Origin: an uncultured Alphaproteobacteria bacterium
GTDB taxonomy: Bacteria > Pseudomonadota > Alphaproteobacteria > Acetobacterales > Acetobacteraceae
Length of the DNA stretch: 64,000 bases
Assembly (NCBI GenBank): GCA_963790535.1
Contig: CAWBOZ010000008.1
Location: forward strand, 55,591-119,590
Direction of reading: 5' to 3'
Positions 25,768 to 47,474 of the stretch are shown here, in pieces. The notes below the pieces were generated by a model. That model was given only the letters and a program-made list of their open reading frames with translations. It did not search any database and was not told the DNA's origin. Positions within the stretch are counted from its first letter, which is position 1. Each line of letters opens with the position of its first letter. Made by a program: the position numbers and the translations under genes.

Positions 25768-25773
25768 CCGCCG

Positions 25774-27374: not shown

Positions 27375-27471
27375 TCCTGGGACTCCTAGCATAATCGTCA
27401 GATGGGGTGCCTGCCGGGCCGCGGCAACGAAGGCCGGCGTCGAGGCTTGCCCTTCTTCGGCCCGTCGAGGC

Positions 27472-28040
27472 ATGGTGCCCCGCATGATCCTTCTCCGGCA
27501 TGGGCAGAGTTGGTTCAATCACCATTTCAGCCAGACCCGCCGAGACCCCGGCATCCACGACCCGGCGCTCACTCCAGTCGGCGAGCAGCAGGCCGAAGCG
27601 GCAGCAGAGGCACTGGCCGGCGAGGATATCCAACGCATCCTCGCCTCGCCCTACACGCGCGCCTTGCAGACCGCGGCGCCCATCGCCCGGCGCCGCGATC
27701 TTCCCGTGCTGGTCCACCCCGCGGTGCGCGAGCGCTACGCCTTCGCCTGCGACGTGGGCACGCCTTGCGCCGCGCTCGCGAGCGCCTGGCCTGGGCTCGA
27801 TTTCGCGCACCTCGACGAGGTGTGGTGGCCCGGCGGCGAGGAGTTCAGCGGACCAAGTGGTCGCCCGCGCCGCGCTGTTCCGCGCCGAGATGGCGGCAGA
27901 GCCGGGCTGGGAGAGCACGCTCGTCGTCAGCCACTGGGGCTTCATCCTGGCGCTCACGGGAACCAGCGTGATGAACGGCAAGTGGGTGCGCTACGACCCG
28001 CGGGATGCGCCGCCTTCGGAGCATCATATGGAAGCCGTAG
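27472..28040 (+). pseudogene. histidine phosphatase (phosphoglycerate-mutase-like) family protein, frame broken at 27841-27846; 3' end unresolved
   Basis: MVPRMILLRHGQSWFN..ASPYTRALQTA..WWPGGEE, then a shift, then SADQVVARAALF..TLVVSHWGFILALTG..KWVRYDP. Deleting one T of GAGTTC joins them. There is no in-frame stop before the ORF runs antisense into atzF. Confidence 0.6.
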
Positions 28041-29732
28041 CGCCGCTCGGCGAGCCAGGCGCGCCAGCCGCCAAGATGCGTGATGTCCGGGGCGTCCGCG
28101 CAGCCGGCCGGCTCGGCGAGGAAGCCGAGGCAAGGGCCGTCCTCCAGCTCGACCGTGCCGAAACCGAGCGGCGCCGGCACCTGGGCCAGCAACGCGCCGA
28201 TGGCGGCAGCGGCAGCGCCCAGACCTCGCCCTCGACCGCGCCACCCGGCGTCGCCCGATATAAACCGGGGCGGCTGCCCAGCGCGTGCAGCCTGTAGGCA
28301 GGGACCGTGTCGCGCGACCCGCACGAAGCGGCCGCCGAGCGCCACGATCTGCCCGTTGAGCGGCAGTCCCGCCATATGCGCGCCGATGCAGAACAGCGCC
28401 GTCTCGTCCGCCTGGACTGGATCTGGCGGCGCGGATGGGGGTAGCGCCTCGCCGGAGGCACCCCAGGTCGCGTTCAACGCGCGGTGGAGCCGGTCCGCAA
28501 GCGGCGCGAGCCGGCCCTCGGACCACGCCGGGCCGACGAGCGTGACCCCGAACGGCAGCCCGTCCTCGCCCATGCCCGCCGGCACCGCGATCGCGGCGAG
28601 GTCGCAGAGATTGACGAAATTGGTCCAGGTGCCGAGCCGCGCGTTGATCCCGACCGGGTCCGCCTCGACCTCGGCGAGCGTGGGGCAGGGCAACGTCGTG
28701 GGCAGGAGCAGCGCGTCGTAGCGGGCGAACAGCCGCTCGGCTGAGCGCCGCGCGTGGGCGAGTTGGTGGAAGGCGGGGAAGGCATCCACCGTGCGCCGGG
28801 TCAGCCCGTTCTCCAGGATCGAGCGCGTGACGGGGTGCAGGATCTCGGGACGCCCCTCGACCACCTCACGCAGCGCCGCCGTGCGCTCGGCGACCCAGGG
28901 GCCATCGTAGAGCAACTGTGCGACGGCGAGGAACTCGCTTATGTCCACCGCCTCGGCGCTGAGTAGCGACGCCGCGCGCGCGTATGGGACCGCGACGGCG
29001 CCTTCGGGCACGATCCCGGCGATGCGGGCGTTGGCGGGGGTGGTGCCGCGGCGGAGATGGGGGAACGGGGCGCGGCGCGAATACGGGTCCGCCTCGTCGA
29101 AGGCGGCGATCACGCGCAGCACGGAAAGCGCCTCGTCCACGGTGCGGGCGAACACCGAGACCGTGTCGAGCGACCGGCAGGCCGGCACGACTCCCCTCGC
29201 CGACACGCTGCCCACCGTAGGCTTGAGGCCGACGACATTGCCGAACGCTGCCGGCACACGCCCTGACCCGGCCGTATCCGTGCCTAGCGCGAAGTGGGCG
29301 ATCCCGGCTGCCACCGCCACCGCCGATCCCGACGATGAGCCGCCCGGCACGCGCGCTCGCATCGAACGGGTTGCGCGGTGTCCCGTACGGGCTGCGCGTG
29401 CCGACGAGGCCAGTCGCGAACTGGTCGAGATTCGTCTTGCCGAGCAGGACGGCGCCTGCATCGAGCAGACGCTGCACGGCGGGCGCTGTCTTCTCGGGCA
29501 TGTAGGCGTAGCCGGGGCAGGCGGCGGTCGTCGGCAGCCCGGCCACGTCCAGGTTGTCCTTGACCGCGAACGGCAGGCCCCAGAGCGGGCGGTCGCGGCG
29601 GCCCTCCGCCTCCAGCGCGGCCGCGCGCGCGAGCACGGAGTCGTCGGAGAGCCGGGTGATCCAGAGCGCCGGGTCGGCGTAGGCCTGGTCCGCCGCGAGG
29701 GCCGCCCGCGCCGCGGCTACGGGAGTATTCAC
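28024..29732 (-). pseudogene. atzF: allophanate hydrolase (amidase-signature, AtzF-like); needs at least 3 frame switches as given
   Basis: GTG 29732 gives ..LWGLPFAVKDNLDVAGLPTTAACP..GKTNLDQFATGL..NPFDA, then a shift to RVPGGSSSGSAVAVAAGIAHFALGTDTAGSGRVPAAFG. The C-terminal domain reads TVPAYRLHALGSRPGLYR..EGEVWALPLP in another frame, then VPAPLGFGTVELEDG..DITHLGGWRAWLA. The stop is taken from frame of ORF 28024..28461. Confidence 0.6.
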
Positions 29733-30400
29733 GCCGTGAGCGCCGCGAGCACCGCCGTACTCGGGGCCGTCCAGCCGACGATTGCGTTCTGGGCCCGCAC
29801 CATCTTCAGCACGGCCGCCTTGAACTCCGGGAAGTAGCTCGCCGTCGCATCCTCGACGAGCAGGCATTCGTAGCCGCGGTCGTTCGCCTCGCGCATGGTG
29901 GTCTGCACGCAGACCTCCGTGGTGACGCCGGCGATCAGCAGGTGCGTGATGCCCCGGTCCCGTAGGGCGCTGTCGAGGCCCGTGGCGTAGAAAGCGCCCT
30001 TGCCGGGCTTGTCCACGACCAGCTCGCCCGGCAGCGGCGCCACCTCGGGCACGATGTCGGCGCCTGGCTCGCCGCGGACGAGGATGCGCCCCATGGGGCC
30101 GGGGTCGCCGATGCGGAGACTCGACGATCCTCGCTCACGCTTGGAAACCGGACAGTCCGTGAGGTCTGGAGCGTGGCACTCGCGGGTGTGAACCACCATC
30201 AGCCGGGCAGCGCGCGCCCCGTCCAGCAGCGCGCGCGCGGGCGCTACGGCCCTGCCGAGCCGCGACACGTCGTTGCCGAGCGCCTCGCCGAAGCCGCCCG
30301 GCTCCAGGAAGTCGCGCTGCATGTCAATCACGACGAGCGCCGTCCTCTCCGGCGGGAGCGCGTAGGCGAAGGGCCGCGCCAGCACGACCGCGGATTTCAA
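29729..30400 (-). CDS. isochorismatase-family cysteine hydrolase (BiuH/TrtA/GuuH-like), copy 1
   Basis: [11 protein letters not shown] (Asp), [10 protein letters not shown] (Lys) and [16 protein letters not shown] (Cys). TTG start overlaps the ATPase stop (TTGA). Confidence 0.8.
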
Positions 30401-31923
30401 GCGCCGCCACCGACCATGTGGCCGCCGATCTCCTGGGCACTCGCCCCAGAAGTCGCGCCGTTATTAGCAGCCTCATGGACGAGCTTTCCGTCGCGCATGA
30501 CCACGATGCGGTCGGCGAGATCGAGCAGCTCGTCGAGGTCCTCGGAGACGAGCAGCACGGCCGCGCCCGCGTTGCGCGCGGCGACGATCCGCGCCCGCAC
30601 CTCCGCCGTCGCCCGCACGTCCAGCCCGAAGCAGGGATTGGCGACGATGAGCAGCCGCGCGTCCCCGTCCAGCTCGCGCGCCAGGACGCAGCGCTGCACG
30701 TTGCCGCCCGAGAGTGCGGCGATGGGCGCCTCGCGCGAGGGCGCACGCACGCCATAGGCGGCGATCAGGCGTCCGGCGTGGTCGGCCATGGCGCGTCCGT
30801 TGAGCAGCGCGCGGCGTCGCCCGGCGCTGTCGCGGTCGAAGGCGCGCAGGTTGAGGTTGTCGCCCACGGACATGCGCGGCACGCAGCCGTTGCGCAGCGG
30901 CTCCTCCGGCAGCACGCGCACGCCGCGCGCCTGCGCCTCGGCGCGCGTGGCGCCGTAAGGCTGGTTCTCGACGAGGATCTCGCCGGATGCTGCCGGGCGC
31001 TGACCGCCGAGCACCTCGACAAGCTCCCGCTGACCGTTGCCTGAGACGCCGGCAACGCCGACGATCTCCCGCGGGTGGACGGCGAGGTGGGCCACGTCGA
31101 GGCCGGCATGCCCCCGGTCATCAGCGGCGCGCAGGCTCCGCACGAGCAGGCGCGGCGCTGAATCCGGTGCGCCGCGGCGTTCGGGCTGGGCCGGGCGATG
31201 CGGCTCGCCGATCATCATCCGCGTCAGGTCCTCGGGAGAGAGCGACGCGACCGGGCCGCCACCCGCGACCCGGCCGCGGCGCAGCACCGTGACCGCGTCG
31301 GCGAAGCGCGCGACCTCGCGGAGCTTGTGCGTGATGATGAGGACCGTGACCTGCCCGGCTTGCGCGAGGCCGCGGACCAGGCCGAGCATCTCCTCGGCCT
31401 CCTGCGGCGTCAGCACGCTGGTCGGCTCGTCGAGCACCAGGAAGCGGCGTTGCAGGTACAGCTGCTTCACGATCTCGGCTTTCTGCCGCTGCCCGGCGGC
31501 GAGTGCCCCGGCGCGAGCATCGAGAGGCAGGCGGAAGGGCATCCCGGCCATGAACTGGTCCAGCGCCGCGCGCTCCCGCGCCCAGGAGACCACGCGGGGC
31601 ACGTCCCTGCGCGCCATGACCAGGTTCTCCGCCAGCGTCATGGAGGGGACCAGCGTGAAGTGCTGATAGACCATGCCGAGGCCGAGGCGGTCCGCATCCG
31701 CAGGGCGGCTGATCTCCGCCTCGCGCCCGTCCACCAGGAAGCTCCCCGCGTCCGCCTGATAGTAGCCGAGCAGGCACTTGACGACGGTGGACTTGCCGGC
31801 GCCGTTCTCGCCGAGGAGGGCGTGGACGGTGCCGGGCGCGACGCGGAAGGATACGTCGTCCAGCGCGGTGAAGGCGCCGAACCGCTTACCGACGCCAGCG
31901 GCCTCAACGCCGATCGCGGTCAT
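30397..31923 (-). CDS. ABC transporter ATP-binding protein with two NBDs (BMP/sugar type)
   Basis: ATG 31923 gives [37 protein letters not shown]; second NBD has [33 protein letters not shown]. Confidence 0.85.
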
Positions 31924-32627
31924 CCGACCGCTGCCAGGAGCGCCGCGCTGGACGCGACGGCGCCGAACACGCCGCCCTGCATCGTCACCATCCGGATTGC
32001 CGCCTCGTGGTTGCCCCGGTCGGTGGCAGCACAGCAATCCGTGAGCAGCAAGCACTCGAAGCCGCGGTCGTTCGCCTCGCGCATGGTGGTGCTGACGCAC
32101 ACGTCCGTCGTGATGCCGGTGATGACCAGGTTGCGGATGGTCCTGGTGCGGAGGATCAACTCCAGGTCGGTGGCGCAGAAGCTGCCCTTGCCGGGCTTGT
32201 CCACAACGACCTCGCCCGGCAACGGCGCCAGTTCGGGGATGATCCCCCAGCCCGGCTCGCCGCGGACCAGGATGCGGCCGCACGGGCCGGGATCGCCGAT
32301 GCCGGCGCCGATGCGTCGCGAGCGCCAGCGCTTGTTCTCGGGCAGGTCGGAGAGGTCGGGGCGGTGTCCCTCCCGCGTGTGCAGCACGGGACCGCCCCAG
32401 GCGCGAAACGCCGCCATCACCCGGCGGATCGGCTCGATGGGCGCGCGGGTGAGCGAGAGGTCGTAGCCCATGCGGTCCACGTAGCCGCCAGGGCCGCAGA
32501 AATCGGTCTGCATGTCTATGACGAGCAGCGCCGTGTTCGCCGGGCGGAAATCGCCGTCGAACGGCCAAGGGTAAGGGTCGGCCGCGACGGCGCCCGCCGG
32601 ATCGGCAAGGCTGCGGGCGGCGCTCAC
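31920..32627 (-). CDS. isochorismatase-family cysteine hydrolase (BiuH/TrtA/GuuH-like), copy 2
   Basis: GTG 32627 overlaps the amidase stop (GTGA). [21 protein letters not shown] and [16 protein letters not shown]. Clear paralogue of copy 1. Confidence 0.8.
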
Positions 32628-33640
32628 TCGGCAGCCTTCGGGAGCGGCGTCTGGTAGGCACGCGTAGGCGCTGCGAGGCCGCAGCCAGTGCCGTCCACTA
32701 CCTGCACCTGCTCCTCCCAGGGGAGCCGATACCGCCCGGCGGCGAGGTCGTGCATGTAGGTGTAGGGGCAGTCGCCCGCGCCGCCTGATACGGCGGAGAA
32801 GCCGCGATGGCCGAACTGGTAGATGTTGTTCTCGACGCCCCAAACCGCCCGCGCCTCGCGCACCAGGTCCGGCCGCACCTCCGCCGTCACGATCTCGTCC
32901 GCCCGGCCCGAGGCGCCGTGCGCGATCACGCTGCCGTCGAAGTTGCAGACCATGGCCTCGCCCATGGAATCGAACGTGCCGTCCGAGCCGGACATGCACA
33001 CGCTCGCCGTCACTATCAGGTTACAGAAGGCGTTGGACTGGTTCGTGAAACGCCAGGCGTCGCGGATCGGCGCGGTGTAGCCTGCGGTGCGCAGCATGAT
33101 CTCGGCGCCCTTGTAGGCGGCCTCGCGGGCCATCTCCGGGAACATGCCGTCGTGGCAGATGATCAGCGCGATCTTGCAGCCCTTCGGCCCCTCCACGACC
33201 GGGATGCCGAGGTCGCCGGGTTCCCACGGCTCGACCGGCACCCAGGGGTGCATCTTGCGGTAGTAGAGGCGGATCGAGCCGGTCTCGTCCACGAGGATGC
33301 CGGAGTTCCAGGGATTGCCGCCGGGGTTGCGCTCCATGAGCGAGAAGCAGCCCCAGACCGCGTTCTCGGCGCAGGCCCGGCGCAGCAAGGCGATCTCCGG
33401 CCCATCCAGGCTGCACAGCACCTCGTCGCGCGTGTCCATCGAGAGGCCGTGCAGCGCGTATTCCGGGAACACGACGAGGTCGAGCGTGCCCATGCCGCGC
33501 TTCGCCTTGCCTACCATGGCCGCGACCCGCTCCGCCTGGCGCATCACGTCGGCGCGCGCCTCGATCACCGGGAGCTGGAGCTGCACCAGCCCGATCACTA
33601 CGCCACCCGGCGCCTTGTTCAGCCCGCCTAGACCATTCAT
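32624..33640 (-). CDS. amiF: formamidase / aliphatic amidase (nitrilase superfamily, AmiF-like)
   Basis: 338 aa. [79 protein letters not shown] closely parallels remembered H. pylori AmiF. Confidence 0.8.
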
Positions 33641-33650
33641 GCCCGTCCCC

Positions 33651-34565
33651 TCACCGCGCTATGCTCAATTCGCCCGGCATCCCCCGCAACGCCCGGCCGG
33701 GTCGCACGGTGGCGACGAGGATCAACAGCGTCGCGACGTAGGGCGCCGCGTAGAACAGGTAGTAGCCCCAGGTGACGCCGACGGTCTGCAATGACGGGCC
33801 GAGAGCGCCTGCCGCTCCGAAGATCAGGGCCGCGACGATGCACCAGAGCGGGTTCCAGCGCGCGAACACCACGAGCGCCACCGCCATCAGCCCCTGCCCG
33901 GACGACAGGCCCTCGTTCCAGCTTCCGGGGTAGCAGAGGGAGAGGAAGGCGCCGCCCACGCCCGCGAGGCCGCTGCCGATCGCGGTCGCGAGGAACCGCA
34001 TCCGATTGACCGGCAGCCCGAGGGCGCGCGCCGCGTCCGCGTTGTCGCCGACGATGCGCAGGCGCAGCCCGGCCCGCATAGAGCGCAGCGCCCACCACAT
34101 GGCGAAGGCCACCGCGAGACCCAGGAAGAACAGCGGGCTGACCTCCAGCGCGCTGCGCACCTGCGGCGATGCCGACCACAGCCCGAGCGGGAGCGTGGGC
34201 AGGTGCGGCGCGCTCGGCTGCACGTAGGGCTTGCCGAGGAAGAACGCGATCCCGGTCCCGGCGAGCATGACCGCGATCCCCATCGCCACGTCGTTCACCC
34301 GCGGCAGCGCGCAGACCGCGCCGTGGACCGCGCCCAGGGCAGCCCCCGCCCCTGCCCCGGCCAGAACGCCGAGCCAGGGATTCCCGGTCTGGTAGGCGCA
34401 GGCGTAGGCGGCCATCGCACCCAGCACCAAGGCGCCCTCGTTGCCGAGGTTGATGCGACCCCCCGTCTCGGTCAGGCACTCGCCGAGGCTCACGAACAGG
34501 AACGGCGTGCTGACCCGGATCGCGCCCGCAACCATGGCGACCAGAACCGTGTCGAGCGCCCCCAT
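33651..34565 (-). CDS. ABC transporter permease (BMP/nucleoside type)
   Basis: ATG 34565 gives MGALDTVLVAMVAGAIRVSTPFLFVSLGECLTETGGRINLGNEG..; polytopic. Confidence 0.85.
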   Translation of the reverse strand: MGALDTVLVAMVAGAIRVSTPFLFVSLGECLTETGGRINLGNEGALVLGAMAAYACAYQTGNPWLGVLAGAGAGAALGAVHGAVCALPRVNDVAMGIAVMLAGTGIAFFLGKPYVQPSAPHLPTLPLGLWSASPQVRSALEVSPLFFLGLAVAFAMWWALRSMRAGLRLRIVGDNADAARALGLPVNRMRFLATAIGSGLAGVGGAFLSLCYPGSWNEGLSSGQGLMAVALVVFARWNPLWCIVAALIFGAAGALGPSLQTVGVTWGYYLFYAAPYVATLLILVATVRPGRALRGMPGELSIAR

Positions 34566-35704
34566 CAGCGCACCTCCGCCGCCCGTGGCTGGAACCACGG
34601 CACCCGGCCGAACAAGGTCTCGCTCGCGAGCACGCTGACGAACACGAGGCCCTGCAGGACGAGCACCGTCGCGTCCGGAAGCCCGAGCCGCCGCTGCAGC
34701 AGGCCGCCCGCGGCGCCGATGCCGCCGACCAGGACGGCCATGGGGATGATGGCGAGCGGGTTCTGCCGGGCGAGGAAGGCGATGAGGATCCCGGCGTAGC
34801 CGTAGCCCGCGATGAGCGAGGCGTTGGCGCGCTGCTGGACGGCCGCGACCTCGATCATCCCTGCCAGCCCTGCGAACGCGCCCCCGAGCGCGCAGGCGCC
34901 GATCATCAGGGCGCCCACTGGCAGCCCTTGCAGCCGCGCCGCGCGCAGATTGCCCCCCGCGATCCGCGCCGCGAAGCCGAGCGTCGTCCGGCTGATCAAG
35001 ACCCAGCACAGCACGCAGGCCACGACGCCGACGAGCAGCCCAGGATGCAGGTCGGTGCCGGGCACCGGGCCGAGGATGTCCCGATCCGGAATCGCGTAGG
35101 TGGACGGCTTGTTGAGGCTCGACGGGTCGCGCAGCGGCCCCTCGACCAGATGATTGAACAGCGCGATGGCGATGTAGGCGAGCACGAGGCTCGCGACCGT
35201 CTCGTTGATCCCGCGCCAGACACGAAGCACGCCCGTCAGCCCGATCCAGGCCGCCCCTGCGGCCGCGCCCGCGAGCGCCATGGCGAGCAGCGTTATGACC
35301 GGGGGCAGCGGTGCCGCCGCCAGCCCGATGCAGGTCGCGGCCAGGCCCCCCAGCACCACCGCCCCTTCGCCACCGATCACCACCATCCCGAGCTGCGCCG
35401 GCACGGCGACGCAGAGCGCCGTCAGCAGCAGGGGTGCTGCGCGCGCCAGCGTGTTCTGGAGCGAGAACGCGCTGCCGAAAGCCCCGCGCCAGACGACGGC
35501 GCAGAACTCCGCCGGCGACTTGCCGAGTGCGACCAGGAACACCGAGAACAGCACCGCCGCGACGACGAGTGCGCCGACCGGGGCAGCGGTGGCCTCCAAC
35601 GCCCGGCGCACCGGATACCAGCGGTCGCCCCGGTTGGGCGCAGGAAGGGACGGCGCCCCCGTCCGCTCCGCCGCGACCGCTCCGCCTGCCATCTTTCCCG
35701 ACAT
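34565..35704 (-). CDS. ABC transporter permease (BMP/nucleoside type)
   Basis: 379 aa, polytopic. GGEGAVVLGGLAA..TTLGFAARIAGGNLRAARLQGLP. Confidence 0.85.
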   Translation of the reverse strand: MSGKMAGGAVAAERTGAPSLPAPNRGDRWYPVRRALEATAAPVGALVVAAVLFSVFLVALGKSPAEFCAVVWRGAFGSAFSLQNTLARAAPLLLTALCVAVPAQLGMVVIGGEGAVVLGGLAATCIGLAAAPLPPVITLLAMALAGAAAGAAWIGLTGVLRVWRGINETVASLVLAYIAIALFNHLVEGPLRDPSSLNKPSTYAIPDRDILGPVPGTDLHPGLLVGVVACVLCWVLISRTTLGFAARIAGGNLRAARLQGLPVGALMIGACALGGAFAGLAGMIEVAAVQQRANASLIAGYGYAGILIAFLARQNPLAIIPMAVLVGGIGAAGGLLQRRLGLPDATVLVLQGLVFVSVLASETLFGRVPWFQPRAAEVR

Positions 35705-35714
35705 GGCGCCCGCG

Positions 35715-36839
35715 CTAGCTGACCGCGCCGTTCACGCCCTGAACGAGGTAGTTCATGGATTCCAGTTGGATCGCCGTCTCCGGATAGGCGGTGCCGGCAG
35801 GGATCACCTGGTTGCCCTTGTTGTCCTTGAGCGGCCCCTTGAAGACGGCGTAGCCGCCCTTCATCATCTCCGCCTTCACGCTGTCCGCGTTCTGGCGCGC
35901 CGCCGCGGTGACGGCCGGGCCGTAGGGCGAGGTCTTGACGTAACCCTCCACCAGGCCGCCGCGCACGAAGTTGGGCAGCGCCTCGCCCGCGAGCGCCTTC
36001 TTGGCGAACATCTGATACACGGTCGCCCAGTTCCACTCGGCGCCGGTGAGGTAGCCCTTCGGCGCGAGCGGCGCCTGGTTCACGTGGTAGCCGCAGGTGT
36101 AGATTCCCCGCCCCTCCGCGGTCTGGATCACCACCTTCGGCCCGTCCACATGGCAGGTGACGACGTCCACGCCCTCGTCGGCCAGCGAGTTCGTCGCCTC
36201 CGCCTCCTTCACCGGCATGGACCAGTCGCCCGTGAAGAGAACGCGCGTCGTGATGGACGGGTCCACTGACTGTGCCCCGAGCGTGAAGCTGTTGATGTTG
36301 ATGAGCACCTGGGGGATGGGCTTCGCCGCGACGAAGCCAAGCTTCTTCGTCTTCGTCATGTGCCCGGCGACGACGCCGCTGAGATACTGCGCCATGCCGA
36401 TATAGCCGAAGTAGGACCCGGCGTTCATCGGGTCCTTGTCCTTCTGCCACAGGCCGCCGCAGTGCCGGAATTGCACCTTCGGGTATTTCCGCGCCATGCG
36501 CAGCACGTACGGGTCGAAGTAGCCGAAGCTGGTCGGGAACAGGAGCGGCGCGCCGTCCAGCTCGATCATGCTCTGCATGGTCTTCTCGACAGCATCGGTC
36601 TCGGGGACGCGCTCCTCCTCGGTGATGCTGACGCCCGGCAGGGATTTGAGCGTCGCCGCGCCCTCGGCGTGCGCCTGGTTGTAGCCGTAGTCGTCCTTGG
36701 GACCGACGTAGATGAAGCCGATGACCAGCTCGCGCGCGTGCGCTCTCCTGATCCCACTGCCTAATCCTAAGGCAAGTGTTGAGGCGCCAAGCCCTCCGGC
36801 GAGCACGCGCCGCCGACTCAGATCACCGAATGTGGTCAT
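35715..36839 (-). CDS. BMP-family ABC transporter substrate-binding protein (Tat signal)
   Basis: ATG 36839 gives MTTFGDLSRRRVLAGGLGAS..ELVIGFIYVGPKDDYGYNQAH..FPTSFGYFDP..LGFVAAKPIPQV. Confidence 0.85.
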   Translation of the reverse strand: MTTFGDLSRRRVLAGGLGASTLALGLGSGIRRAHARELVIGFIYVGPKDDYGYNQAHAEGAATLKSLPGVSITEEERVPETDAVEKTMQSMIELDGAPLLFPTSFGYFDPYVLRMARKYPKVQFRHCGGLWQKDKDPMNAGSYFGYIGMAQYLSGVVAGHMTKTKKLGFVAAKPIPQVLININSFTLGAQSVDPSITTRVLFTGDWSMPVKEAEATNSLADEGVDVVTCHVDGPKVVIQTAEGRGIYTCGYHVNQAPLAPKGYLTGAEWNWATVYQMFAKKALAGEALPNFVRGGLVEGYVKTSPYGPAVTAAARQNADSVKAEMMKGGYAVFKGPLKDNKGNQVIPAGTAYPETAIQLESMNYLVQGVNGAVS

Positions 36840-36976
36840 CGCATCCCCCAAACCGTCCACCCTGGCAGTCGGCGAAGCAAGCTGTATGCCAGTGGGAAAA
36901 GCCGATCTGCGGTACCGGCTCTTCGGTCCTGCCGTGCCGGCACGCGGCTTGCTTCACACTGGTGGAGGGGGCTGAT

Positions 36977-37963
36977 TTGGATCTCGCGCACGACGTTGAG
37001 TTGGTCGGAGTGGTCAAGCGCTACGGCGCCACTGTCGCCGTGAAGGACGTGAGTCTGCGCGTGGCGCCGACGAGCTACTGCTGCCTGCTTGGGCCGAGCG
37101 GCTGCGGCAAGACGACGACGCTGCGCATGATCGCCGGGCACGAGACGGTCTCCGAGGGCGACGTCCTCATTCACGGGAAGAACGTGACGCTGCTGCCGCC
37201 GGGTCGGCGCGGGACGGCGATGATGTTCCAGAGCTACGCGCTGTTCCCGCACCTGTCCTGCCTCGACAACGTGGCGTTCCCGCTGAAGGTGCGGGGCATG
37301 GGGCGGACCGCACGCCGGGCGCGGGCGCGGGAGCAGCTCTCGCGCGTGGACATGGAGCCGCTCGCGGACCGGTTGCCCTCGCAGCTCTCAGGTGGTCAGC
37401 AGCAGCGCGTGGCGCTCGCCCGCGCGCTGGTAACGGAGCCGCGCGTGCTCTTGCTCGACGAGCCGCTGTCGGCGCTCGATCCGTTCCTGCGGGGACGGAT
37501 GCGCGAGGAGCTGAAGCGCTTCCAGCGCGACCTCGGGCTGACCTTCATCCACGTGACGCACAGCCAGGAGGAGGCGATGGCGCTTGCCGACCTCGTCGTG
37601 GTGATGGAGGGCGGGCGCATCCTGCAGGCGGCGCCGCCGCGCGAGGTGTTCGAGCGGCCCGCCACGGCCTTCGTCGCCCGGTTCATCGGCGGGCACAACG
37701 TCCTGTCCCAGGGGAACGGGGCGGTCGCCGTGCGCGCCGACCGCTGCCGGCTGGGGATGCCGGGCGAAGGGCCGCACGTCTCCGGGCGAGTTGCCGCAGT
37801 CGAGTACCAAGGGCCGAGCGTGCGCGTCGCCGTGGCGACGGACGCGGGCGAGGCGTCCGCGCTCCTGCCCGATGCCAGCTTCTTCGCCGCCCCGGTCGCC
37901 GTCGGCGATCCCGCGACGCTCGTCTGGTCGCCCGCGGACGGGCACGCGGTCGAGCCGGCCTGA
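36977..37963 (+). CDS. ABC transporter ATP-binding protein (PotA/Fe3+-type)
   Basis: TTG 36977 (or GTG 36962) after GGAGGGGG. LLGPSGCGKTTTLRMIAG..LSGGQQQRVALARAL..LLLDEPLSALD. Confidence 0.8.
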   Translation: MDLAHDVELVGVVKRYGATVAVKDVSLRVAPTSYCCLLGPSGCGKTTTLRMIAGHETVSEGDVLIHGKNVTLLPPGRRGTAMMFQSYALFPHLSCLDNVAFPLKVRGMGRTARRARAREQLSRVDMEPLADRLPSQLSGGQQQRVALARALVTEPRVLLLDEPLSALDPFLRGRMREELKRFQRDLGLTFIHVTHSQEEAMALADLVVVMEGGRILQAAPPREVFERPATAFVARFIGGHNVLSQGNGAVAVRADRCRLGMPGEGPHVSGRVAAVEYQGPSVRVAVATDAGEASALLPDASFFAAPVAVGDPATLVWSPADGHAVEPA

Positions 37964-37987
37964 TCCCATCACCAGAGGAGCCGCATC

Positions 37988-39253
37988 ATGGCCACACCCA
38001 TCAGCAGACGAACCGCCCTCGCGCTCGCCGGCGCCGCGGCAGGGTCAGGGGCCATCACCGGCTTCCCGACGATCTGGGCGCAGACCATCAAGGACGTGAC
38101 GCTGCGCCAGTTCGGCACCGGTGTCTCGAACCTGAACGCCATCTCCGAGAAGGTGAAGCAGGACCTCGGCTTCACCCTGCAGATGACCGCGCTCGACAGC
38201 GACGCCGTGACGCAGAAGGCGGTGACGCAGCCGCGCTCCTACGACATCGCGGACATCGAGTACTGGATCTGCAAGAAGATCTTCCCGAGCGGCGTCCTGC
38301 AGCCGATGCAGACGGACAAGATCAAGCTCTACGACAAGATCGTGCCCCTCTTCACAACCGGGCACCTCACGCCCGCGACGCCCATCGCCCAGGGCACCGC
38401 GCCCAACACGGTCGGCTACGTCGAGAAGCCCGGCGCCAAGACTTTCGCCACGCAGCCGACCGGGTGGATGACGCTCATCCCCACGATCTACAACGCCGAC
38501 ACGCTCGGCATCCGCCCCGACCTCGTGGGCCGCCCGATCACGAACTGGCGCGACCTCGTGGACCCCGCGTTCAAGGGCAAGTCCGCGATCCTGAACATCC
38601 CAAGCATCGGGATCATGGACGCCGCGATGGTCATGGAGAGCCTGGGCAAGATCAAATATGGCGACAAGGGAAACATGACGAAGGACGAGATCGACAAGAC
38701 GATCGCGTTCCTCATAGAGACCAAGAAGGCGGGACAGTTCCGCGCCTTCTGGAAGAGCTTCGATGAGAGCGTGAACCTGATGTCCTCGGGCGAGGTGGTG
38801 ATCCAGTCCATGTGGTCGCCGGCCGTGACCGCCGTGCGCGCGAAAGACATCCCCTGCAAGTATCAGCCGCTCGCCGAAGGCTACCGCGCCTGGGGCGGGG
38901 GCCTCGGCATCGCGACCCACCTCAAGGGGATCGAGCTGGACGCCGCCTACGAGTACATCAACTGGTATCTCTCCGGCTGGTGCGGCGCTTACCTCAACAG
39001 GCAAGGTTATTACAGCGCCGTGCTGGAGACCGCGAAGGAGAACATGAGCGCGAACGAGTGGGGCTACTGGATGGAAGGCAAGCCTGCGACCGCGGACATC
39101 GTCTCGCCCGAGGGCAAGGTCATAGACAAGGCCGGCGCCGTGCGCGACGGCGGCTCGTTCATGGAGCGCATGGGTCACATCGCCTGCTGGAACTCGGTGA
39201 TGGACCAGGACCGCTACATGGTTGGGAAATGGAACGAGTTCATCTCGGCGTGA
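37988..39253 (+). CDS. ABC transporter substrate-binding protein (PotD/PotF-like, Tat signal)
   Basis: MATPISRRTALALAGAAAGSGAITGFPTIWAQ; 421 aa; GAGGAG RBS. Confidence 0.85.
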   Translation: MATPISRRTALALAGAAAGSGAITGFPTIWAQTIKDVTLRQFGTGVSNLNAISEKVKQDLGFTLQMTALDSDAVTQKAVTQPRSYDIADIEYWICKKIFPSGVLQPMQTDKIKLYDKIVPLFTTGHLTPATPIAQGTAPNTVGYVEKPGAKTFATQPTGWMTLIPTIYNADTLGIRPDLVGRPITNWRDLVDPAFKGKSAILNIPSIGIMDAAMVMESLGKIKYGDKGNMTKDEIDKTIAFLIETKKAGQFRAFWKSFDESVNLMSSGEVVIQSMWSPAVTAVRAKDIPCKYQPLAEGYRAWGGGLGIATHLKGIELDAAYEYINWYLSGWCGAYLNRQGYYSAVLETAKENMSANEWGYWMEGKPATADIVSPEGKVIDKAGAVRDGGSFMERMGHIACWNSVMDQDRYMVGKWNEFISA

Positions 39254-39355
39254 CGGCGGCTGGCCCCCTCCTCCGTGATGCGCGGCCTCCGGATCGAGTC
39301 CGGGGACAGGCTCCGGCGGACATCCACGATTTGCCCGCGCGCACGAAAGTCGTAG

Positions 39356-39378
39356 ATGGCCGGGACAAGCCCGGCCAT
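39356..39378. repeat. 9-bp-stem palindrome inside an intergenic REP-like unit
   Basis: ATGGCCGGG-ACAAG-CCCGGCCAT. The surrounding approx. 39280-39395 translates to the junk peptide ..VVDGRDKPGHD.., which I recognise from dispersed intergenic repeats of alphaproteobacterial genomes. Confidence 0.6.
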
Positions 39379-39414
39379 GACGCGGGAAGGTCAAGGGGCA
39401 GCGCTGCCCCTCTC

Positions 39415-40239
39415 TTGCAGGCCTTGCCGCTCGCGCTCGTGCTCGGCATCTTTCTCCTGCTGCCGCTCCTCGCGCTCGTCGTCGTGTCGTTCTTCGACTA
39501 TGACAGCGTCCGCCTCATCCCGGCCTTCATCCTCGGCAACTACCGCGACGCGCTCTTCTCCGCCGTGACCTGGCGAACCTACCTCAACACCGCCAAGTAT
39601 GCCGCGCTCACCTGGGCGGCGACGCTCGCCATCGGCTTCCCGGTCGCATACTTCCTCGCCTTCCAGGTGCGTTCGCGCGCGATGCAGATGGGGCTGTTCC
39701 TGATCTGCACGGTGCCGTTCCTCACGTCCAACATCATCCGCATGATCTCGTGGATTCCCTTCCTCGGGCGCAACGGGCTGATCAACGGCCTGCTCCTCCA
39801 CGTGGGCGCGATACGCTCGCCGCTGGAGTTCCTGCTCTACTCCGATTTCTCGGTCGTGCTGGCCTTCGTTCATCTTTATGCCTTGTTCATGATCACGCCG
39901 ATCTTCAACGCCATGGTGCGCATGGACCGGCGCCTGATCGAGGCGGCCGTGGACGCGGGAGCAAAGCCCTGGCAGGTAGTGCGCGACGTGGTAGTGCCGC
40001 TGAGCAAGCCCGGCATCGCCATCGGCTCGATCTTCGTCGTGACGCTCGTGATGGGCGACTTCGTGACCGTGCAGGTCATGGGCGGCGGGCAGCGCGCCTC
40101 GGTCGGGCTGATGATCTACAACGAGATCTCGCTGCTCCAATACCCGGCGGCCTGCGCCAACGCCGTCATCCTGCTGCTCGTGGTGCTGCTGATGGTGGGT
40201 GCGATCCTGCGCACGGTGAACATCCGGGGCGAGCTCTGA
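39415..40239 (+). CDS. ABC transporter permease (PotB-like)
   Basis: Start uncertain (TTG 39415). LALVLGIFLLLPLLALVVVSFFDYD..TVPFLTSNIIRMISWIPFLGRNGLING..IEAAVDAGAKPWQV. Confidence 0.7.
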   Translation: MQALPLALVLGIFLLLPLLALVVVSFFDYDSVRLIPAFILGNYRDALFSAVTWRTYLNTAKYAALTWAATLAIGFPVAYFLAFQVRSRAMQMGLFLICTVPFLTSNIIRMISWIPFLGRNGLINGLLLHVGAIRSPLEFLLYSDFSVVLAFVHLYALFMITPIFNAMVRMDRRLIEAAVDAGAKPWQVVRDVVVPLSKPGIAIGSIFVVTLVMGDFVTVQVMGGGQRASVGLMIYNEISLLQYPAACANAVILLLVVLLMVGAILRTVNIRGEL

Positions 40240-41051
40240 TGCGCCTGCGCCGGGCGCTGCTCGCCGGGTTCTTCGCGCTGTTCGTGCTGTTCCTCTACGG
40301 GCCGACGGCGACGATCCTCGTCCTGTCCTTCCAGGGGCCGGATGGCGGCCTCACCTTCCCGATGAACGGAGTCTCGCTGCACTGGTTCGCAGGCCTCTTC
40401 GGGACGCAGCGGGTCGGCGACCTGGGCGGCGCGTTCCGCCGCTCCATCGCGCTCGCCTTCATGGTCATGGCGGCGACGGTGCTGGTCGTGCTGCCGGCCG
40501 GCCTCGCCTTTCGCCGACGGTTCCCCGGCAGCGGCGCGCTGCTCACCCTCACGGTCGCGAGCCTGATCGTGCCCTCGATCCTGGTGAGCCTTGGCGTCGG
40601 CCTCCTGTTCAGCGCGGTCGGGCTCGATGCCGATTGGTGGAGCAGCGCGTTCGGCGCGCAGCTCACCTGGACGCTGCCGTTCGGCGTGCTGGTCATGTTC
40701 GCGGTGTTCAACCGCTTCGACAAATCCTGGGAGGAGGCGGCGCGCGACCTCGGCGCGTCGCCGTGGCAGGTGTTCAGCCAGGTCGTGCTGCCGATCATCC
40801 TGCCCGGCGTCGTCGGAATTGCCTTGTTCGGCTTCACCTTGTCCTACGACGAGTTCGCCCGCACCCTGCTCACGGCCGGGAGCAGCAACACGCTGCCGCT
40901 GGAGATCTTCGGGATGACCACGAACATCACGACGCCCGTGCTCTACGCACTCGGCACGCTGACGACGGGGTTGTCGTTCCTGGCCATCGGCGCTGCGCTC
41001 GGCGCCATCACGGCGCTCGCGCGGCGCCGGGCGCGGCGGGTCGCGGCGTAG
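40239..41051 (+). CDS. ABC transporter permease (PotC-like)
   Basis: ATG 40239 overlaps the upstream stop (TGATG). MRLRRALLAGFFALFVLFLYGP..WEEAARDLGASPWQVFSQVVLPI. Confidence 0.85.
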   Translation: MRLRRALLAGFFALFVLFLYGPTATILVLSFQGPDGGLTFPMNGVSLHWFAGLFGTQRVGDLGGAFRRSIALAFMVMAATVLVVLPAGLAFRRRFPGSGALLTLTVASLIVPSILVSLGVGLLFSAVGLDADWWSSAFGAQLTWTLPFGVLVMFAVFNRFDKSWEEAARDLGASPWQVFSQVVLPIILPGVVGIALFGFTLSYDEFARTLLTAGSSNTLPLEIFGMTTNITTPVLYALGTLTTGLSFLAIGAALGAITALARRRARRVAA

Positions 41052-41071
41052 GCGGGCGGAGAGGGAGATTC

Positions 41072-42517
41072 ATGGCTGACTACGACCTGGTGATCCGGGG
41101 CGGCACCGTGGTGACGGCCGCCGACCAGTTCCGCGCCGACGTGGGCGTGCGCGCCGGACGCGTCGCGGCGCTGGGGGATGGGCTGCGCGGCGACCGGGAG
41201 CTGGACGCGGGCGGGTTGCTCGTGATGCCGGGCGGCGTGGATACGCATTGCCACATCGAGCAGCTTCGCGAGGGTGGCGAGGCCGACGAGGAAACCTGGG
41301 AGACCGGCAGCCGCAGCGCGCTCGCGGGCGGGACGACCAGCGTCGTCACCTTCTCCATGCAGTTCAAGGGCCGCGCCATCGCGCCGTCCCTTGCCGACTA
41401 TCGTGGACGGGCGGAACGGGGCGCGATGGTGGATTACAGCTTCCACCAGATCGTCACCGACCCCACGGACGAGGTGCTCGCGGAACTCCCCGGCATCGTG
41501 GAGAGCGGGATACGCAGCTTCAAAGTGTTCCTGACCTACGATCCCCTGCGGCTCGACGACCGACAGTTCCTCCGCGTCCTCGCCGCCGCGCGGCGCACGG
41601 GGGCGCTCGTCACCGTCCACTGCGAGAACTACGATGCCATCGCCTGGCGCACGGAGGCCCTGCTGGCCGCTGGCATGACGGCGCCCAAGTATCACGCCTG
41701 GTCGCGCCCCAGCGTGATCGAGCGCGAGGCGACGCACCGGGCGGTGGCGCTGGCGGAGCTGGTGGACCAGCCAATCCAAGTGTTCCACGTCTCCTGTCCC
41801 GAGGCGGCCGACGAGATCAGGCGCGGGCAGGAGCGGGGCCTCAAGGTGTGGGGCGAGACGTGCCCGCAGTATTTCATGCTGAGCGCCGCGGACATGGATC
41901 GGCCCGGCTTCGAGGGCGCCAAATGGATGTGCAGCCCGGCGCCCCGCAATGCGGCCGCGAGCGCCGGGCTTTGGGACGCGATCCGGTTGGGAACGCTCGA
42001 CGTGGTGAGCAGCGACCACTCCGGCTGGAGCTACGAGGGGCCGCGCGGCAAGCGGGTGAACGGGACGGACGCGCCGTTCCGCGATATCCCGAACGGCGTG
42101 CCGGGCCTGGCGGCGCGGCTGCCGATCCTGTGGAGCGAAGGGGTGGGCAAGGGCCGCATCACGGCGTGCGACTTCGTGCGCCTGGTCGCGCACCAGCCCG
42201 CGCGGCTGTTCGGGCTGCAAGGCAAGGGCACGGTGGCACCCGGCGCCGACGCGGACCTGGTGCTGTGGGATCCGGGAAAGCGCGTGACGTTGACCAACGC
42301 GCTCATGCAGCAGGCGATAGACTACACGCCCTACGAAGGGATGGAGGTCACGGGTTGGCCGGTTGCGACGGTGCGCCGGGGTGAGGTCGTGATGCAGGAT
42401 GGGCGCGTGCAGGCCGCGCCCGGCAGCGGGCAGTTTCTCGCGCGCGGCCCCTACGCGCTCATCAAGCCGCGCGGCGTGCTGCCGGATGGGTTCGACGCGA
42501 GCGCGTTCAGCGGCTGA
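41072..42517 (+). CDS. dihydropyrimidinase / D-hydantoinase (cyclic amidohydrolase)
   Basis: MADYDLVIRGGTVVTA..GGVDTHCHIEQ..FKVFLTY..VHCEN..VFHVS..SSDHS; 481 aa. Confidence 0.85.
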   Translation: MADYDLVIRGGTVVTAADQFRADVGVRAGRVAALGDGLRGDRELDAGGLLVMPGGVDTHCHIEQLREGGEADEETWETGSRSALAGGTTSVVTFSMQFKGRAIAPSLADYRGRAERGAMVDYSFHQIVTDPTDEVLAELPGIVESGIRSFKVFLTYDPLRLDDRQFLRVLAAARRTGALVTVHCENYDAIAWRTEALLAAGMTAPKYHAWSRPSVIEREATHRAVALAELVDQPIQVFHVSCPEAADEIRRGQERGLKVWGETCPQYFMLSAADMDRPGFEGAKWMCSPAPRNAAASAGLWDAIRLGTLDVVSSDHSGWSYEGPRGKRVNGTDAPFRDIPNGVPGLAARLPILWSEGVGKGRITACDFVRLVAHQPARLFGLQGKGTVAPGADADLVLWDPGKRVTLTNALMQQAIDYTPYEGMEVTGWPVATVRRGEVVMQDGRVQAAPGSGQFLARGPYALIKPRGVLPDGFDASAFSG

Positions 42518-42701
42518 GCAAGGGGTGGGTGACAGGGACCTGTACCAGTCAACACAAGTGCCAGGGACGACCTCGCATCTATTGTATGGAGGTTGAAACC
42601 GTAACCGAACTATGGTGCCGGAGCTGCCGGAGGTTGCTGGCGTGCAGGACGGGCGATGGTAGCCGAGGCTGGCTGCGGCCCGCACCGTGAAAGAGAAGCG
42701 C

Positions 42702-44180
42702 ATGCACCAGGTTCTGATTGTTGGCGCCGGACCTGTCGGACTCACCCTAGCGGCGGAACTGGCACGGTATGGGGTGCAGGTCCGCATCATCGATCGCAGC
42801 CCGCATCCGACCGAGACCTCCAAGGCCCTCGTCATCTGGAGCCGCACGCTCGAACTGATGGACCGAATGGGCTGTACACCCGCTTTCCTCGACGCCGGGC
42901 TGCCAGCCCGTGGGGCGTCCATCCGCAGCGGCCGGACCGTGCTGGGGCACGCCGGGTTCGACGGCGTCGCTAGTCCTTACAATTTTGCCCTGATGATCCC
43001 GCAATGCGACACGGAACGGCTGCTGACCGCGCATCTCAAGTCTCTCGGCGTGACGGTGGAACGGACGGTGGAGCTGTTGGGCTTCAGCGAGACGGCAGAC
43101 CACGTCGAGGCGCGCCTGGGCCACGCCGACGGGCGGGAAGAGACGGTCGAGACATCCTGGCTGATCGGCTGCGACGGCGCGCACAGCACGGTGCGGCACG
43201 GCCTCGCCCTCGCGTTCCAGGGCGTGGCGCAGGGTGACGACTGGATGCTTGCCGACGTTCGATTGGAAGGTGACGGCACGCCGCCGGGCGACGAGATCGC
43301 CACGTTCCTGCATCGGGACGGGCCGTTCGTCATCTTTCCGATTCCCGGCGGCCGGGCGCGGATCGTCGCTACCGTGGGCAAGACGGTGGCGGGACAGTCC
43401 AGGCCGGATCCGACGCTCTCGGAGGTGCAGGCCATGGCGGACGAGCGCACCGGCGGCGGCTTCCGCGTTGTTGATCCCATTTGGCTGGCTAATTTCCGCA
43501 TCAACGAGCGCAAGGTGTCCGACTACGCGAAGGGGCGGGTCTTCCTGGCCGGAGACGCCGCGCACGTCCACAGCCCCGCCGGCGGCCAGGGCATGAATAC
43601 CGGCATGCAGGACGCTTTCAACCTGTCCTGGAAACTGGCCATGGTGATCCGGGGAGAGGCCCCGCGCACCTTACTCGACAGTTACACGCCAGAGCGGAGC
43701 GCGGTGGGCGACATGGTGCTGCGCAACGCGACCCTGCTGACAGACATGGGGACACTCGCCCATCCTGGTGCGCAGGCCGCCCGCAACCTCGCCCTGCGCT
43801 TCATGCTCGGCTTCTACGCCGTGCAGGAACGAATGGCCGCCACCATGAGCGAGGTCGAGATCGCCTATGCGAAGAGTCCCCTCTCGCGCGGCCGCCACGC
43901 GGGTGACCGGCTGCCGCCGGAGCAGTATGCTGGGCCGCCGCCGGGTAACGGGGCCGCGCCTCGCTTCGTGCTGTTCGCGGCCGACGGCGTGAGGGGCGCG
44001 GCGTTGGCGGCGCGCTTCCCTGGCGTGCTCGACCCGAGCCCACGGACACCGCCCGACCCGCACAGGCTCCTCATCGTCCGGCCTGACGGCTATGTCGGCC
44101 TGTCTGCCGCCGGCACCGATTGGGCGGAGGCGGAGCGTTACCTCCGCCTGCTGGCCGTCCCAGCTGCTGGTCTCAGCTGA
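42702..44180 (+). CDS. FAD-dependent aromatic-ring monooxygenase (PheA/TfdB family)
   Basis: MHQVLIVGAGPVGLTLAAELARYG..GRVFLAGDAAHVHSPAGGQGMNTGMQDAFNLSWKLA. Confidence 0.8.
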   Translation: MHQVLIVGAGPVGLTLAAELARYGVQVRIIDRSPHPTETSKALVIWSRTLELMDRMGCTPAFLDAGLPARGASIRSGRTVLGHAGFDGVASPYNFALMIPQCDTERLLTAHLKSLGVTVERTVELLGFSETADHVEARLGHADGREETVETSWLIGCDGAHSTVRHGLALAFQGVAQGDDWMLADVRLEGDGTPPGDEIATFLHRDGPFVIFPIPGGRARIVATVGKTVAGQSRPDPTLSEVQAMADERTGGGFRVVDPIWLANFRINERKVSDYAKGRVFLAGDAAHVHSPAGGQGMNTGMQDAFNLSWKLAMVIRGEAPRTLLDSYTPERSAVGDMVLRNATLLTDMGTLAHPGAQAARNLALRFMLGFYAVQERMAATMSEVEIAYAKSPLSRGRHAGDRLPPEQYAGPPPGNGAAPRFVLFAADGVRGAALAARFPGVLDPSPRTPPDPHRLLIVRPDGYVGLSAAGTDWAEAERYLRLLAVPAAGLS

Positions 44181-44913
44181 CCGCCGTCGCATCCTGCCCA
44201 TGGACAACCGCGCCGATGTAGATATCCGCGAGCGCCGGGTCGCGGATCAGCGCGTCGGTTGGCCCCTCCGCCTCGACGCGGCCGCGGCTCAGCACGTAGC
44301 AGCGCTCGGTCATCGCGGCGGCGAGGGTGACGTTCTGCTCGACCAGGAGGATCGCCGTCCCTGACTCGCGCACTCCTTGCAGGATCTCGCGCACACTCGC
44401 GACCGCGACGGGCGAGAGACCGCTCGACGGCTCGTCCATCAGCAGCAGCCGCGGCTTCGCCATCAGCGCGCGGCCGATCGCTAGGAGCTGCTGCTCGCCG
44501 CCGCTGAACGAGCCTGCAAGCTCGCGGCGGCGCTCGCGGAGCAGGCGGAAGCGCTCGTAGATCGAGGCGAGGCGGGCGTGGGCCTCGCGCCGGCCCGCGC
44601 GGTAGGCGCCGAGCAGGAGATTGTCCTCGACCGACATCGCCGGGAACACCTGCCGCCCCTCCGGGCAGAGCGACAGCCCGGCCTCGACCCGGCGCCGCGT
44701 CGGCAGCCCGGCGACATCCTGCCCGTCAAGCCGGATCACGCCCGCCGCCGCCGCGACGCGGCCCATGATGGCGCGGAGCAGCGTCGTCTTGCCGGCGCCG
44801 TTCGCGCCGAGCACGGCGACCGAGCCGCCCGCGTCCACCGCGAGTTCGACGCCGCGGAGCGCCGGGACGGTGCCGAAGGCGACGTCGAGGCCGGAGACGA
44901 CGAGCAGTGCCAT
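44173..44913 (-). CDS. branched-chain amino-acid ABC transporter ATP-binding protein (LivF-like)
   Basis: VLGANGAGKTTLLRAIMG..FSGGEQQLLAIGRALMAKPRLLLMDEPSSGL. Confidence 0.85.
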   Translation of the reverse strand: MALLVVSGLDVAFGTVPALRGVELAVDAGGSVAVLGANGAGKTTLLRAIMGRVAAAAGVIRLDGQDVAGLPTRRRVEAGLSLCPEGRQVFPAMSVEDNLLLGAYRAGRREAHARLASIYERFRLLRERRRELAGSFSGGEQQLLAIGRALMAKPRLLLMDEPSSGLSPVAVASVREILQGVRESGTAILLVEQNVTLAAAMTERCYVLSRGRVEAEGPTDALIRDPALADIYIGAVVHGQDATAVS

Positions 44914-47472: not shown

Positions 47473-47474
47473 CG

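Follow-up and report, generated by a model that had tools for sequence, protein, structure and literature searches.

The locus described here raises the question of what is degraded by a divergent pair of operons that together encode two isochorismatase-family cysteine hydrolases, a formamidase, an allophanate hydrolase, a hydantoinase and two ATP-binding cassette (ABC) importers, and whether both operons act on the same compound. It lies within a stretch of 64,000 nucleotides, referred to here as the window, that was taken from an uncultured alphaproteobacterium of the Acetobacteraceae (assembly GCA_963790535.1, contig CAWBOZ010000008.1, positions 55,591 to 119,590). An initial annotation, made from the sequence alone, had read the two operons as serving one nitrogen-rich compound and had described their gene combination as unrecognised. 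Operons containing TrtA, BiuH and AtzF are, however, known from Herbaspirillum sp. BH-1 and Rhizobium leguminosarum 3841 (PMC7948467), where the legend of a supplementary figure also names an ABC transporter cassette, a GntR regulator, trtB and atzD, and biuH, trtA and atzF are co-located with bmpA-nupABC in nitrifiers, both ammonia oxidisers and comammox Nitrospira (PMC12625717, mSystems 2025). Because operons joining trtA, biuH and atzF to an ABC importer were thus already published, the locus matches a characterised pathway. Here, we present evidence that the minus-strand operon, running from 36839 down to about 28024, is by its gene content a member of this known triuret/biuret utilisation cassette. 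Taken as a whole, an account in which this cassette carries an atzF gene probably disrupted by an assembly fault, the plus-strand operon is a separate hydantoin-type module, and both operons start from sigma-54 promoters is one that we hold to be very likely correct.

The assignment of the cassette depends on the identity of its two cysteine hydrolases, numbered 1 and 2 in the initial annotation and called CH1 and CH2 here. The G+C content of the window is about 70%, hence it contains many spurious open reading frames (ORFs), and true genes were settled by family (profile) searches; these upheld the identities proposed for all eight minus-strand and all five plus-strand genes. CH1 has the isochorismatase fold (PF00857, 155.3 bits) and matches the Herbaspirillum TrtA structure 6XIX at 302.2 bits, as against 229.1 and 213.4 bits for the BiuH structures and 108 bits for the RutB structures. 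CH2 matches R. leguminosarum BiuH (6AZO) at 405.8 bits, as against 215.7 bits for TrtA and 97 bits for the RutB structures. The NCBIfam equivalog model for BiuH, NF050097 (cut-off 370), is passed by CH2 at 418.5 bits and failed by CH1 at 264.9 bits. The motif contexts VIDMQ.DF, VDKPGKG.F and T(E/D)VCV.TT, to which the initial annotation had drawn attention, are present, and in CH1 the catalytic triad D24/K129/C162 and the substrate-binding residues F29, K132 and Q202 all fall at aligned positions. Six positions have been reported to separate TrtA from the BiuH consensus, those of TrtA being F35, N41, A134, E160, Y187 and I205 (PMC7948467). In our alignment CH1 carries the TrtA residue at every one of the six (F, N, A, E, Y, I), and CH2 shows the BiuH-type residues Y, Y, S, D and T in the contexts GGY, MGY, KGS, TDVC and AAT. 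Phylogenetic placement, which had been proposed as a check, was carried out as a quick maximum-likelihood tree of 151 sequences, in which CH1 falls inside the clade of the TrtA structure and CH2 inside that of the BiuH structure (Shimodaira-Hasegawa-like approximate likelihood ratio test, SH-aLRT, 98 and 93, respectively), so that both cluster with the characterised enzymes. Since bit scores, curated model, diagnostic residues and tree clades agree, CH1 is assigned as an orthologue of TrtA and CH2 as an orthologue of BiuH, and triuret and biuret hydrolase activities are predicted for them from their characterised orthologues. The original call of two BiuH/TrtA-like enzymes linked to an allophanate hydrolase was right and can now be given more exactly as one TrtA and one BiuH. 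Among the substrates that it had offered, triuret and biuret stand, and guanylurea is not indicated; a reading of the hydrolases as guanylurea hydrolases was rejected because of the scores.

The arrangement of the genes around these two hydrolases points to the same cassette. A scan of species-representative genomes yielded at least 585 loci encoding a TrtA relative, and cassettes were compared in the best 80 of these, chosen as the top TrtA matches to the window. The order substrate-binding protein (SBP), permease, permease, (amiF), biuH, ATPase, trtA, (atzF), with the genes in brackets optional, repeats in Alphaproteobacteria, Betaproteobacteria, Cyanobacteria, Planctomycetota and Myxococcota, and homologues of the window SBP, with 52-71% identity, stand first in the related cassettes. 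On plasmids from Ideonella dechloratans and Rhizobium etli the annotation likewise runs SBP, permease, permease, hydrolase, ATPase, hydrolase and atzF, the last reduced to a short remnant in R. etli. The position of the ATPase gene between the two paralogous hydrolases, which had been thought unusual, is in fact the standard order in related loci. One locus departs from it (G310:C13:64474-65802): there biuH (424 bits) directly adjoins a TrtA-like gene (260 bits) with no ATPase gene between them.

Within this order trtA is a plug-in gene. A second genome of the same genus, G001, is 85-90% identical to the window over the locus and lacks exactly the stretch 29707-30396 (junction at G001:C8:77237-77251); the stop of its ATPase gene overlaps the start of atzF in a GTGA, where the window reads ATPase-TTGA-trtA-GTGA-atzF. 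The modules of the cassette also occur apart in other genomes of the family, two of which carry SBP-permease-permease-amiF-biuH-ATPase and others trtA-atzF or atzF together with an hpxZ-like gene.

In the pathway proposed for the cassette, the importer of the BMP type would take up a polyureide, its putative ligand, and TrtA would cleave the terminal amide of triuret to give carboxybiuret. Carboxybiuret would then break down to CO2 and biuret, presumably spontaneously, there being no TrtB decarboxylase in the locus; BiuH would convert biuret to allophanate and AtzF would convert allophanate to two NH3 and two CO2. The window resembles the Herbaspirillum-type operons in its three enzymes with matching diagnostic residues, its in-operon ABC cassette and its pathway logic, but differs from them in having a built-in AmiF and a frameshifted atzF, and no GntR regulator, TrtB decarboxylase or AtzD was found near the cassette. 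With the nitrifier clusters it shares a BMP-type importer co-located with biuH, trtA and atzF, whereas these clusters contain trtB, allFGHK or urease genes as well, and formamidase is nowhere mentioned in the paper that describes them (PMC12625717). The cyanuric acid pathway of Pseudomonas sp. ADP (AtzD/AtzE/AtzF) also ends in AtzF, and the closest solved relative of the window SBP is AtzT, an atrazine periplasmic binding protein (6PI5, 214.8 bits); unlike that pathway, the window encodes no cyanuric acid hydrolase, and biuret would be cleaved by the cysteine hydrolase BiuH rather than by the amidase AtzE.

The features of both operons are collected in the table below. Successive minus-strand genes are tightly packed: the 4-nucleotide overlaps listed by the initial annotation are all present (GTGA at 32624-32627, ATGA at 31920-31923, TTGA at 30397-30400 and GTGA at 29729-29732), and the stop codon of permease 1 and the ATG of permease 2 have one base in common (TGATG at 34565).

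Table. Genes and candidate promoter elements of the divergent operon pair (window coordinates; scores in bits).
Feature	Coordinates	Strand	Evidence and remarks
atzF, allophanate hydrolase, disrupted as assembled	28024..29732	-	NF006043 matches in two frames
trtA, triuret hydrolase (CH1)	29729..30400	-	6XIX 302.2; TrtA-specific residues
NupA-like ABC ATPase of the BMP importer, double nucleotide-binding domain	30397..31923	-	Two PF00005 domains; flanked by biuH and trtA in related loci
biuH, biuret hydrolase (CH2)	31920..32627	-	NF050097 418.5 (cut-off 370)
amiF, AmiF-type formamidase	32624..33640	-	Passes NCBIfam formamidase equivalog NF009803, 551.3 (cut-off 406)
ABC permease 2, NupC-like	33651..34565	-	PF02653 125.6
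ABC permease 1, NupB-like	34565..35704	-	PF02653 95.2; position conserved in related loci
BMP/PnrA-family periplasmic SBP, cassette gene 1	35715..36839	-	PF02608 124.7; start ATG 36839 after GGGGGA
Candidate sigma-54 -24/-12 element TGGCATACAGCTTGCT, facing BMP-SBP gene	36876..36891	-	Exact pattern match; counterpart in G001
Candidate sigma-54 -24/-12 element CGGCACGCGGCTTGCT, facing PotA-like gene	36938..36953	+	One mismatch; identical in G001
PotA-like ABC ATPase	36977..37963	+	TTG 36977 after GGAGG, GTG 36962 alternative; PhnT2/PotA-type models 303-317, below cut-off
Family-8 periplasmic binding protein, SBP2	37988..39253	+	PF13416 55.6; no NCBIfam match; faint PotD match in PDB
PotB-like permease	39415..40239	+	Start uncertain (TTG 39415); NF007044 124.5, below cut-off
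PotC-like permease	40239..41051	+	NF007047 117.7, below cut-off
D-hydantoinase/dihydropyrimidinase	41072..42517	+	TIGR02033 489 (cut-off 393.25); NF009941 640.9 (cut-off 647)

The last gene of the cassette, atzF, proved not to be the single ORF from 29732 to 28024 that had been annotated. The frame that begins at 29732 stops at 28866, and the rest of the gene lies in a second frame, 29461-27845, which extends 65 codons beyond the end of the family. The TGA at 28024 sits in a third frame and is reached in frame only after a switch near 28050, which explains the end coordinate given originally. The model NF006043 (cut-off 487) matches in two frames, at 177.1 bits (profile positions 23-147) and 470.5 bits (143-597), so that the whole TIGR02713/NF006043 profile is covered across the two, with an additional out-of-frame stretch at 28208-28310; the AH_C domain scores 75.5 bits. 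The frame switch falls between 29361 and 29350 in each of seven homologue alignments. In G001, by comparison, atzF is a single ORF with a canonical C-terminal domain sequence, from which the window differs by single bases at about 29357 (+1), 28310 (+1), 28208 (-1) and 28050 (+1). Two more single-base differences, at 28022 and 27847, fall in a convergent histidine-phosphatase gene (window 27483-28297, plus strand) that is frameshifted near 27847 and whose Pfam match ends at profile position 125 of 194. The phosphatase ORF and the minus-strand atzF ORF at 27845-28461 are antisense to each other over about 450 nucleotides, and the stops of both are shifted by single-base insertions or deletions (indels) relative to G001.

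These indels could be read in two ways. If atzF and the histidine-phosphatase gene were real, recent pseudogenes, the cassette would free part of the nitrogen and stop at allophanate. Such decay would agree with the confinement of all six single-base indels to 27847-29357, the remaining 12 kb of the locus showing no frame break in this genome, with their position outside long homopolymer runs, and with a locus that is evolving, as the differing trtA content of the two genomes of the genus indicates. Selection, on the other hand, does not appear to have been relaxed, the ratio of nonsynonymous to synonymous substitution rates (dN/dS) against G001 being 0.20 for atzF and 0.06 for the histidine-phosphatase gene, compared with 0.07-0.25 for intact neighbours, and four independent frameshifts with no surplus of amino-acid change would be odd. 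That two unrelated neighbouring genes are both hit fits a locally poor consensus, and the assembly is an incomplete one of the metagenome type (76% complete, with rpoB, rpoC and dnaE missing). G001, moreover, carries a frameshift of its own in permease 1, near the equivalent of window position 35494. The pseudogene reading consequently strikes us as possible but unlikely. Because there are several frameshifts in two unrelated adjacent genes of an incomplete assembly, with no relaxed selection, the atzF indels are more probably explained by a local error of assembly or consensus in this metagenome-assembled genome (MAG). In the assembled genome, at 76% completeness, neither a second AtzF-type gene nor a urease alpha subunit was found.

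The formamidase is the component of the cassette that the published pathway does not explain. AmiF aligns over nearly its full length with the formamidases of Bacillus cereus (5G3O, 361.5 bits) and Helicobacter pylori (2DYU, 329 bits), and keeps the catalytic Glu/Lys/Cys and the second Glu in the contexts FPEY, YRK, EPW and ICHDG, which align with both structures. It differs from those two enzymes in its setting, a ureide-degradation operon in which its gene is translationally coupled to biuH. Among the 57 compared loci that have permease 2, biuH and trtA, an amiF gene stands between permease 2 and biuH in 25, and the AmiF copies of the cassettes are 67-75% identical to each other across phyla. 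Cassettes that include AmiF were seen, among others, in Rhizobium mongolense, Variovorax rhizosphaerae, Tropicimonas marinistellae and Roseibium sp. Co-occurrence was then counted in even samples of 300 Alphaproteobacteria and a further 300 Pseudomonadota, with AmiF and BiuH both required to exceed their model cut-offs. In the alphaproteobacterial sample, where biuH exceeds the cut-off in 14 of 300 genomes, AmiF is present in five other genomes, all five of which have it 30-50 nucleotides upstream of an over-cut-off biuH. The pseudomonadotal sample adds eight AmiF genomes, every one with biuH, which adjoins amiF in four; three others have it on the same strand at a distance of 3.6-7.7 kb, and the remaining one has it on a different contig. 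Combined, biuH is found in 13 of 13 other AmiF genomes, directly adjacent in nine and within 8 kb in 12; these genomes are related and not independent, yet represent at least nine genera. In the searchable literature, outside which some key papers lie, no paper was found that joins formamidase to biuret or triuret metabolism, and the formamidase operons treated in a plasmid paper of 2026 belong to another kind of cluster, which is linked to urtABCDE and has fmdA as its formamidase gene. These comparisons suggest that AmiF is an optional but regular, so far unexplained, accessory of the cassette, and that its linkage to biuH is strong and apparently undescribed in that literature.

One tentative possibility, to which we give the lesser part of our confidence, is that AmiF belongs to the biuret cassette in a dedicated role, completing a formyl-ureide branch. 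BiuH or TrtA would strip the terminal amide from formylurea or formylbiuret, as they would from biuret or triuret; the resulting N-formylcarbamate would yield CO2 and formamide, from which AmiF would free the last nitrogen as ammonia. TrtA has been reported to turn over formylurea at 0.3% of the triuret rate, which made it the second-best substrate tested (PMC7948467, Table 2); in the searchable literature, formylurea turned up in this paper only. In two Roseobacter MAG loci, L031 and L040, a complete AmiF-bearing cassette is followed downstream, at about 12-19 kb in each locus, by a third, distant isochorismatase-family gene (33% identity), a cyclic amidohydrolase gene (31-33% identity to the window hydantoinase) and a further ABC ATPase gene, and these may represent an extended ureide locus.

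The two operons of the window diverge from a shared control region, as originally proposed, that reaches from the SBP start codon (ATG 36839) to the TTG at 36977, or alternatively the GTG at 36962, of the PotA-like gene. When the whole window was searched with the sigma-54 pattern TGGCAY-N5-TTGCW, allowing up to one mismatch, two of the four matches fell within this region of about 140 bp, each directed toward its own operon; the other two, both with one mismatch, are at 14417-14432 (minus strand) and 58155-58170 (plus strand). Both elements of the pair are retained in G001, where the spacer has been widened from about 140 to about 470 bp by palindromes resembling repetitive extragenic palindromic (REP) sequences (CATGCCCGGACTTGATCCGGGCATC...). 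Of 54 other trt loci, 18 have a similar element in front of the SBP gene, where the expected number is about 0.9; among the 12 orthologous PotA-SBP2 cassettes described below, nine have one upstream of potA. Both RpoN (385.8 bits) and NtrC (693.7 bits) are encoded in the genome, with scores that exceed the model cut-offs. A scan for sigma-70 promoters across 27400-43000 returned none, and a scan for intrinsic terminators returned one terminator-like site, within a gene. We infer that both operons start from back-to-back sigma-54 promoters, and that a distant enhancer-binding protein, most simply NtrC under nitrogen limitation, probably switches on both. Transcripts would then be predicted to begin near 36865 (minus strand) and 36964 (plus strand). 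Such a distant activator would explain the lack of a local regulator gene: in agreement with the initial annotation, testing of ORFs from 20 to 59 kb revealed no regulator, and no close homologue of the GntR genes that border the cassette elsewhere was found on the contig.

The plus-strand operon encodes a PotABCD-like importer and a D-hydantoinase, with a REP-like palindromic spacer (39254-39414) separating the SBP2 and PotB-like genes. The hydantoinase is closest to the D-hydantoinase of Ralstonia pickettii (1NFG, 396.4 bits), and the contexts expected of its binuclear metal site (DTHCH, FKVF, HCE, FHVS and SDH) were read by eye from the translation. Orthologues of the PotA-SBP2-PotB-PotC cassette occur in 12 of the 300 sampled Alphaproteobacteria, with SBP2 identities of 59-80%. 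Directly after potC, eight of the 12 carry a gene of the Asp/Glu/hydantoin racemase family, in one case with a neighbouring gene of the polysaccharide-deacetylase family as well, and because of this association with hydantoin/allantoin racemase we place the importer with hydantoin-type cyclic ureides. In the window it is a predicted ring-opening hydantoinase that fills the racemase slot, and this enzyme would open the imported cyclic ureide. The operon is like the hyu-type hydantoin clusters and 1NFG in that its hydantoinase passes TIGR02033, has the metal-site motifs and is paired with an importer; unlike hyu-type clusters it has no carbamoylase or racemase, and its importer is a PotABCD-like ABC system rather than a permease.

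The initial proposal that the divergent operons serve one compound finds little support in these comparisons. It would require a joint pathway: ring opening of an imported cyclic ureide by the hydantoinase, then degradation of the product by TrtA, BiuH, AmiF and AtzF. The two operons do have in common the 140-bp region with its paired sigma-54 elements, and the arrangement is preserved in G001; at one distant locus, L028, a 49%-identical hydantoinase gene lies 1.3 kb from trtA, and a more distantly related amidohydrolase is encoded close by in two Roseobacter loci. None of the 12 orthologous importer cassettes, however, lies beside trt genes or contains this hydantoinase, and eight carry the racemase-family gene instead. 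A cyclic amidohydrolase is near only three of the 57 trt cassettes and absent from the vicinity of the other 54, and relatives in the family have trt modules with no hydantoinase operon, so that the hydantoinase operon and the trt cassette are linked only within this genus (the present genome and G001). The products of D-hydantoinases, furthermore, are N-carbamoyl acids, which would be unexpected substrates for TrtA and BiuH, both reported to be highly specific (PMC7948467). We judge a joint pathway improbable and favour the plus-strand operon as an independent module, the two operons being co-regulated yet separate nitrogen-scavenging modules.

Several points count against parts of this account of a known cassette beside a separate module. 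In G001, too, the hydantoinase operon adjoins the trt cassette, and a functional link within the genus is possible. Cassette frequencies were obtained from the loci with the best TrtA matches and hence from no unbiased sample. The promoter elements are pattern matches. Finally, atzF is untranslatable as assembled, and the pathway would stop at allophanate should its indels prove real.

A nucleoside or purine importer accompanied by isochorismatase-family enzymes of unrelated subfamilies (RutB, nicotinamidase) is a far less probable reading of the cassette, one that we dismiss: the transporter parts do match nucleoside-type and vitamin-B6-type BMP ABC models, and AtzT is annotated merely as an atrazine periplasmic binding protein, but every transporter match is far under its cut-off, the hydrolases score only 110-112 bits with the RutB model (cut-off 378) and 35-42 bits with the nicotinamidase model (cut-off 174), and their matches to RutB structures (97-108 bits) fall well below those to TrtA (302) and BiuH (406).

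The surroundings of the locus are rich in nitrogen-scavenging genes, at window positions 22810-26574 and 44173-52904. Among these are genes of the agmatinase/arginase family and amino-acid ABC genes, a Liv-type ABC system that has two binding proteins together with an alpha/beta hydrolase, and a transporter of the major facilitator superfamily adjoining a creatinase/prolidase-type M24 peptidase. Elsewhere in the assembly, outside the window, contig C16 carries a second ureide-type cluster at about 90400-119300, with a third isochorismatase-family gene that is 37% identical to BiuH and TrtA (C16:90431-91081), an HpxZ/TrtB-like gene (C16:101252-101626) adjoining an amidase-signature gene (C16:101668-102843), and a gene for a second BMP-family SBP (C16:118229-119230). 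This HpxZ/TrtB-like gene is the sole one found in the assembly.

As far as its core is concerned, the locus is simply a further example of a described pathway. Urea fertiliser contains triuret and biuret as large-scale impurities, and both may also arise by oxidation of urate, so that cassettes of this kind are relevant to nitrogen cycling in soil and water. The paired sigma-54 promoters, if they act as predicted, give a simple account of control in a cassette from which the usual GntR regulator is missing. The co-occurrence of AmiF and biuH, with about two-fifths of cassettes carrying a formamidase, points to an unrecognised substrate class or to an unrecognised product, formamide; if the formyl-ureide branch were to hold, cassettes that encode AtzF together with AmiF could be expected to mineralise carbamoyl-ended as well as formyl-ended polyureides, such as the oxidation products of purines and pyrimidines.

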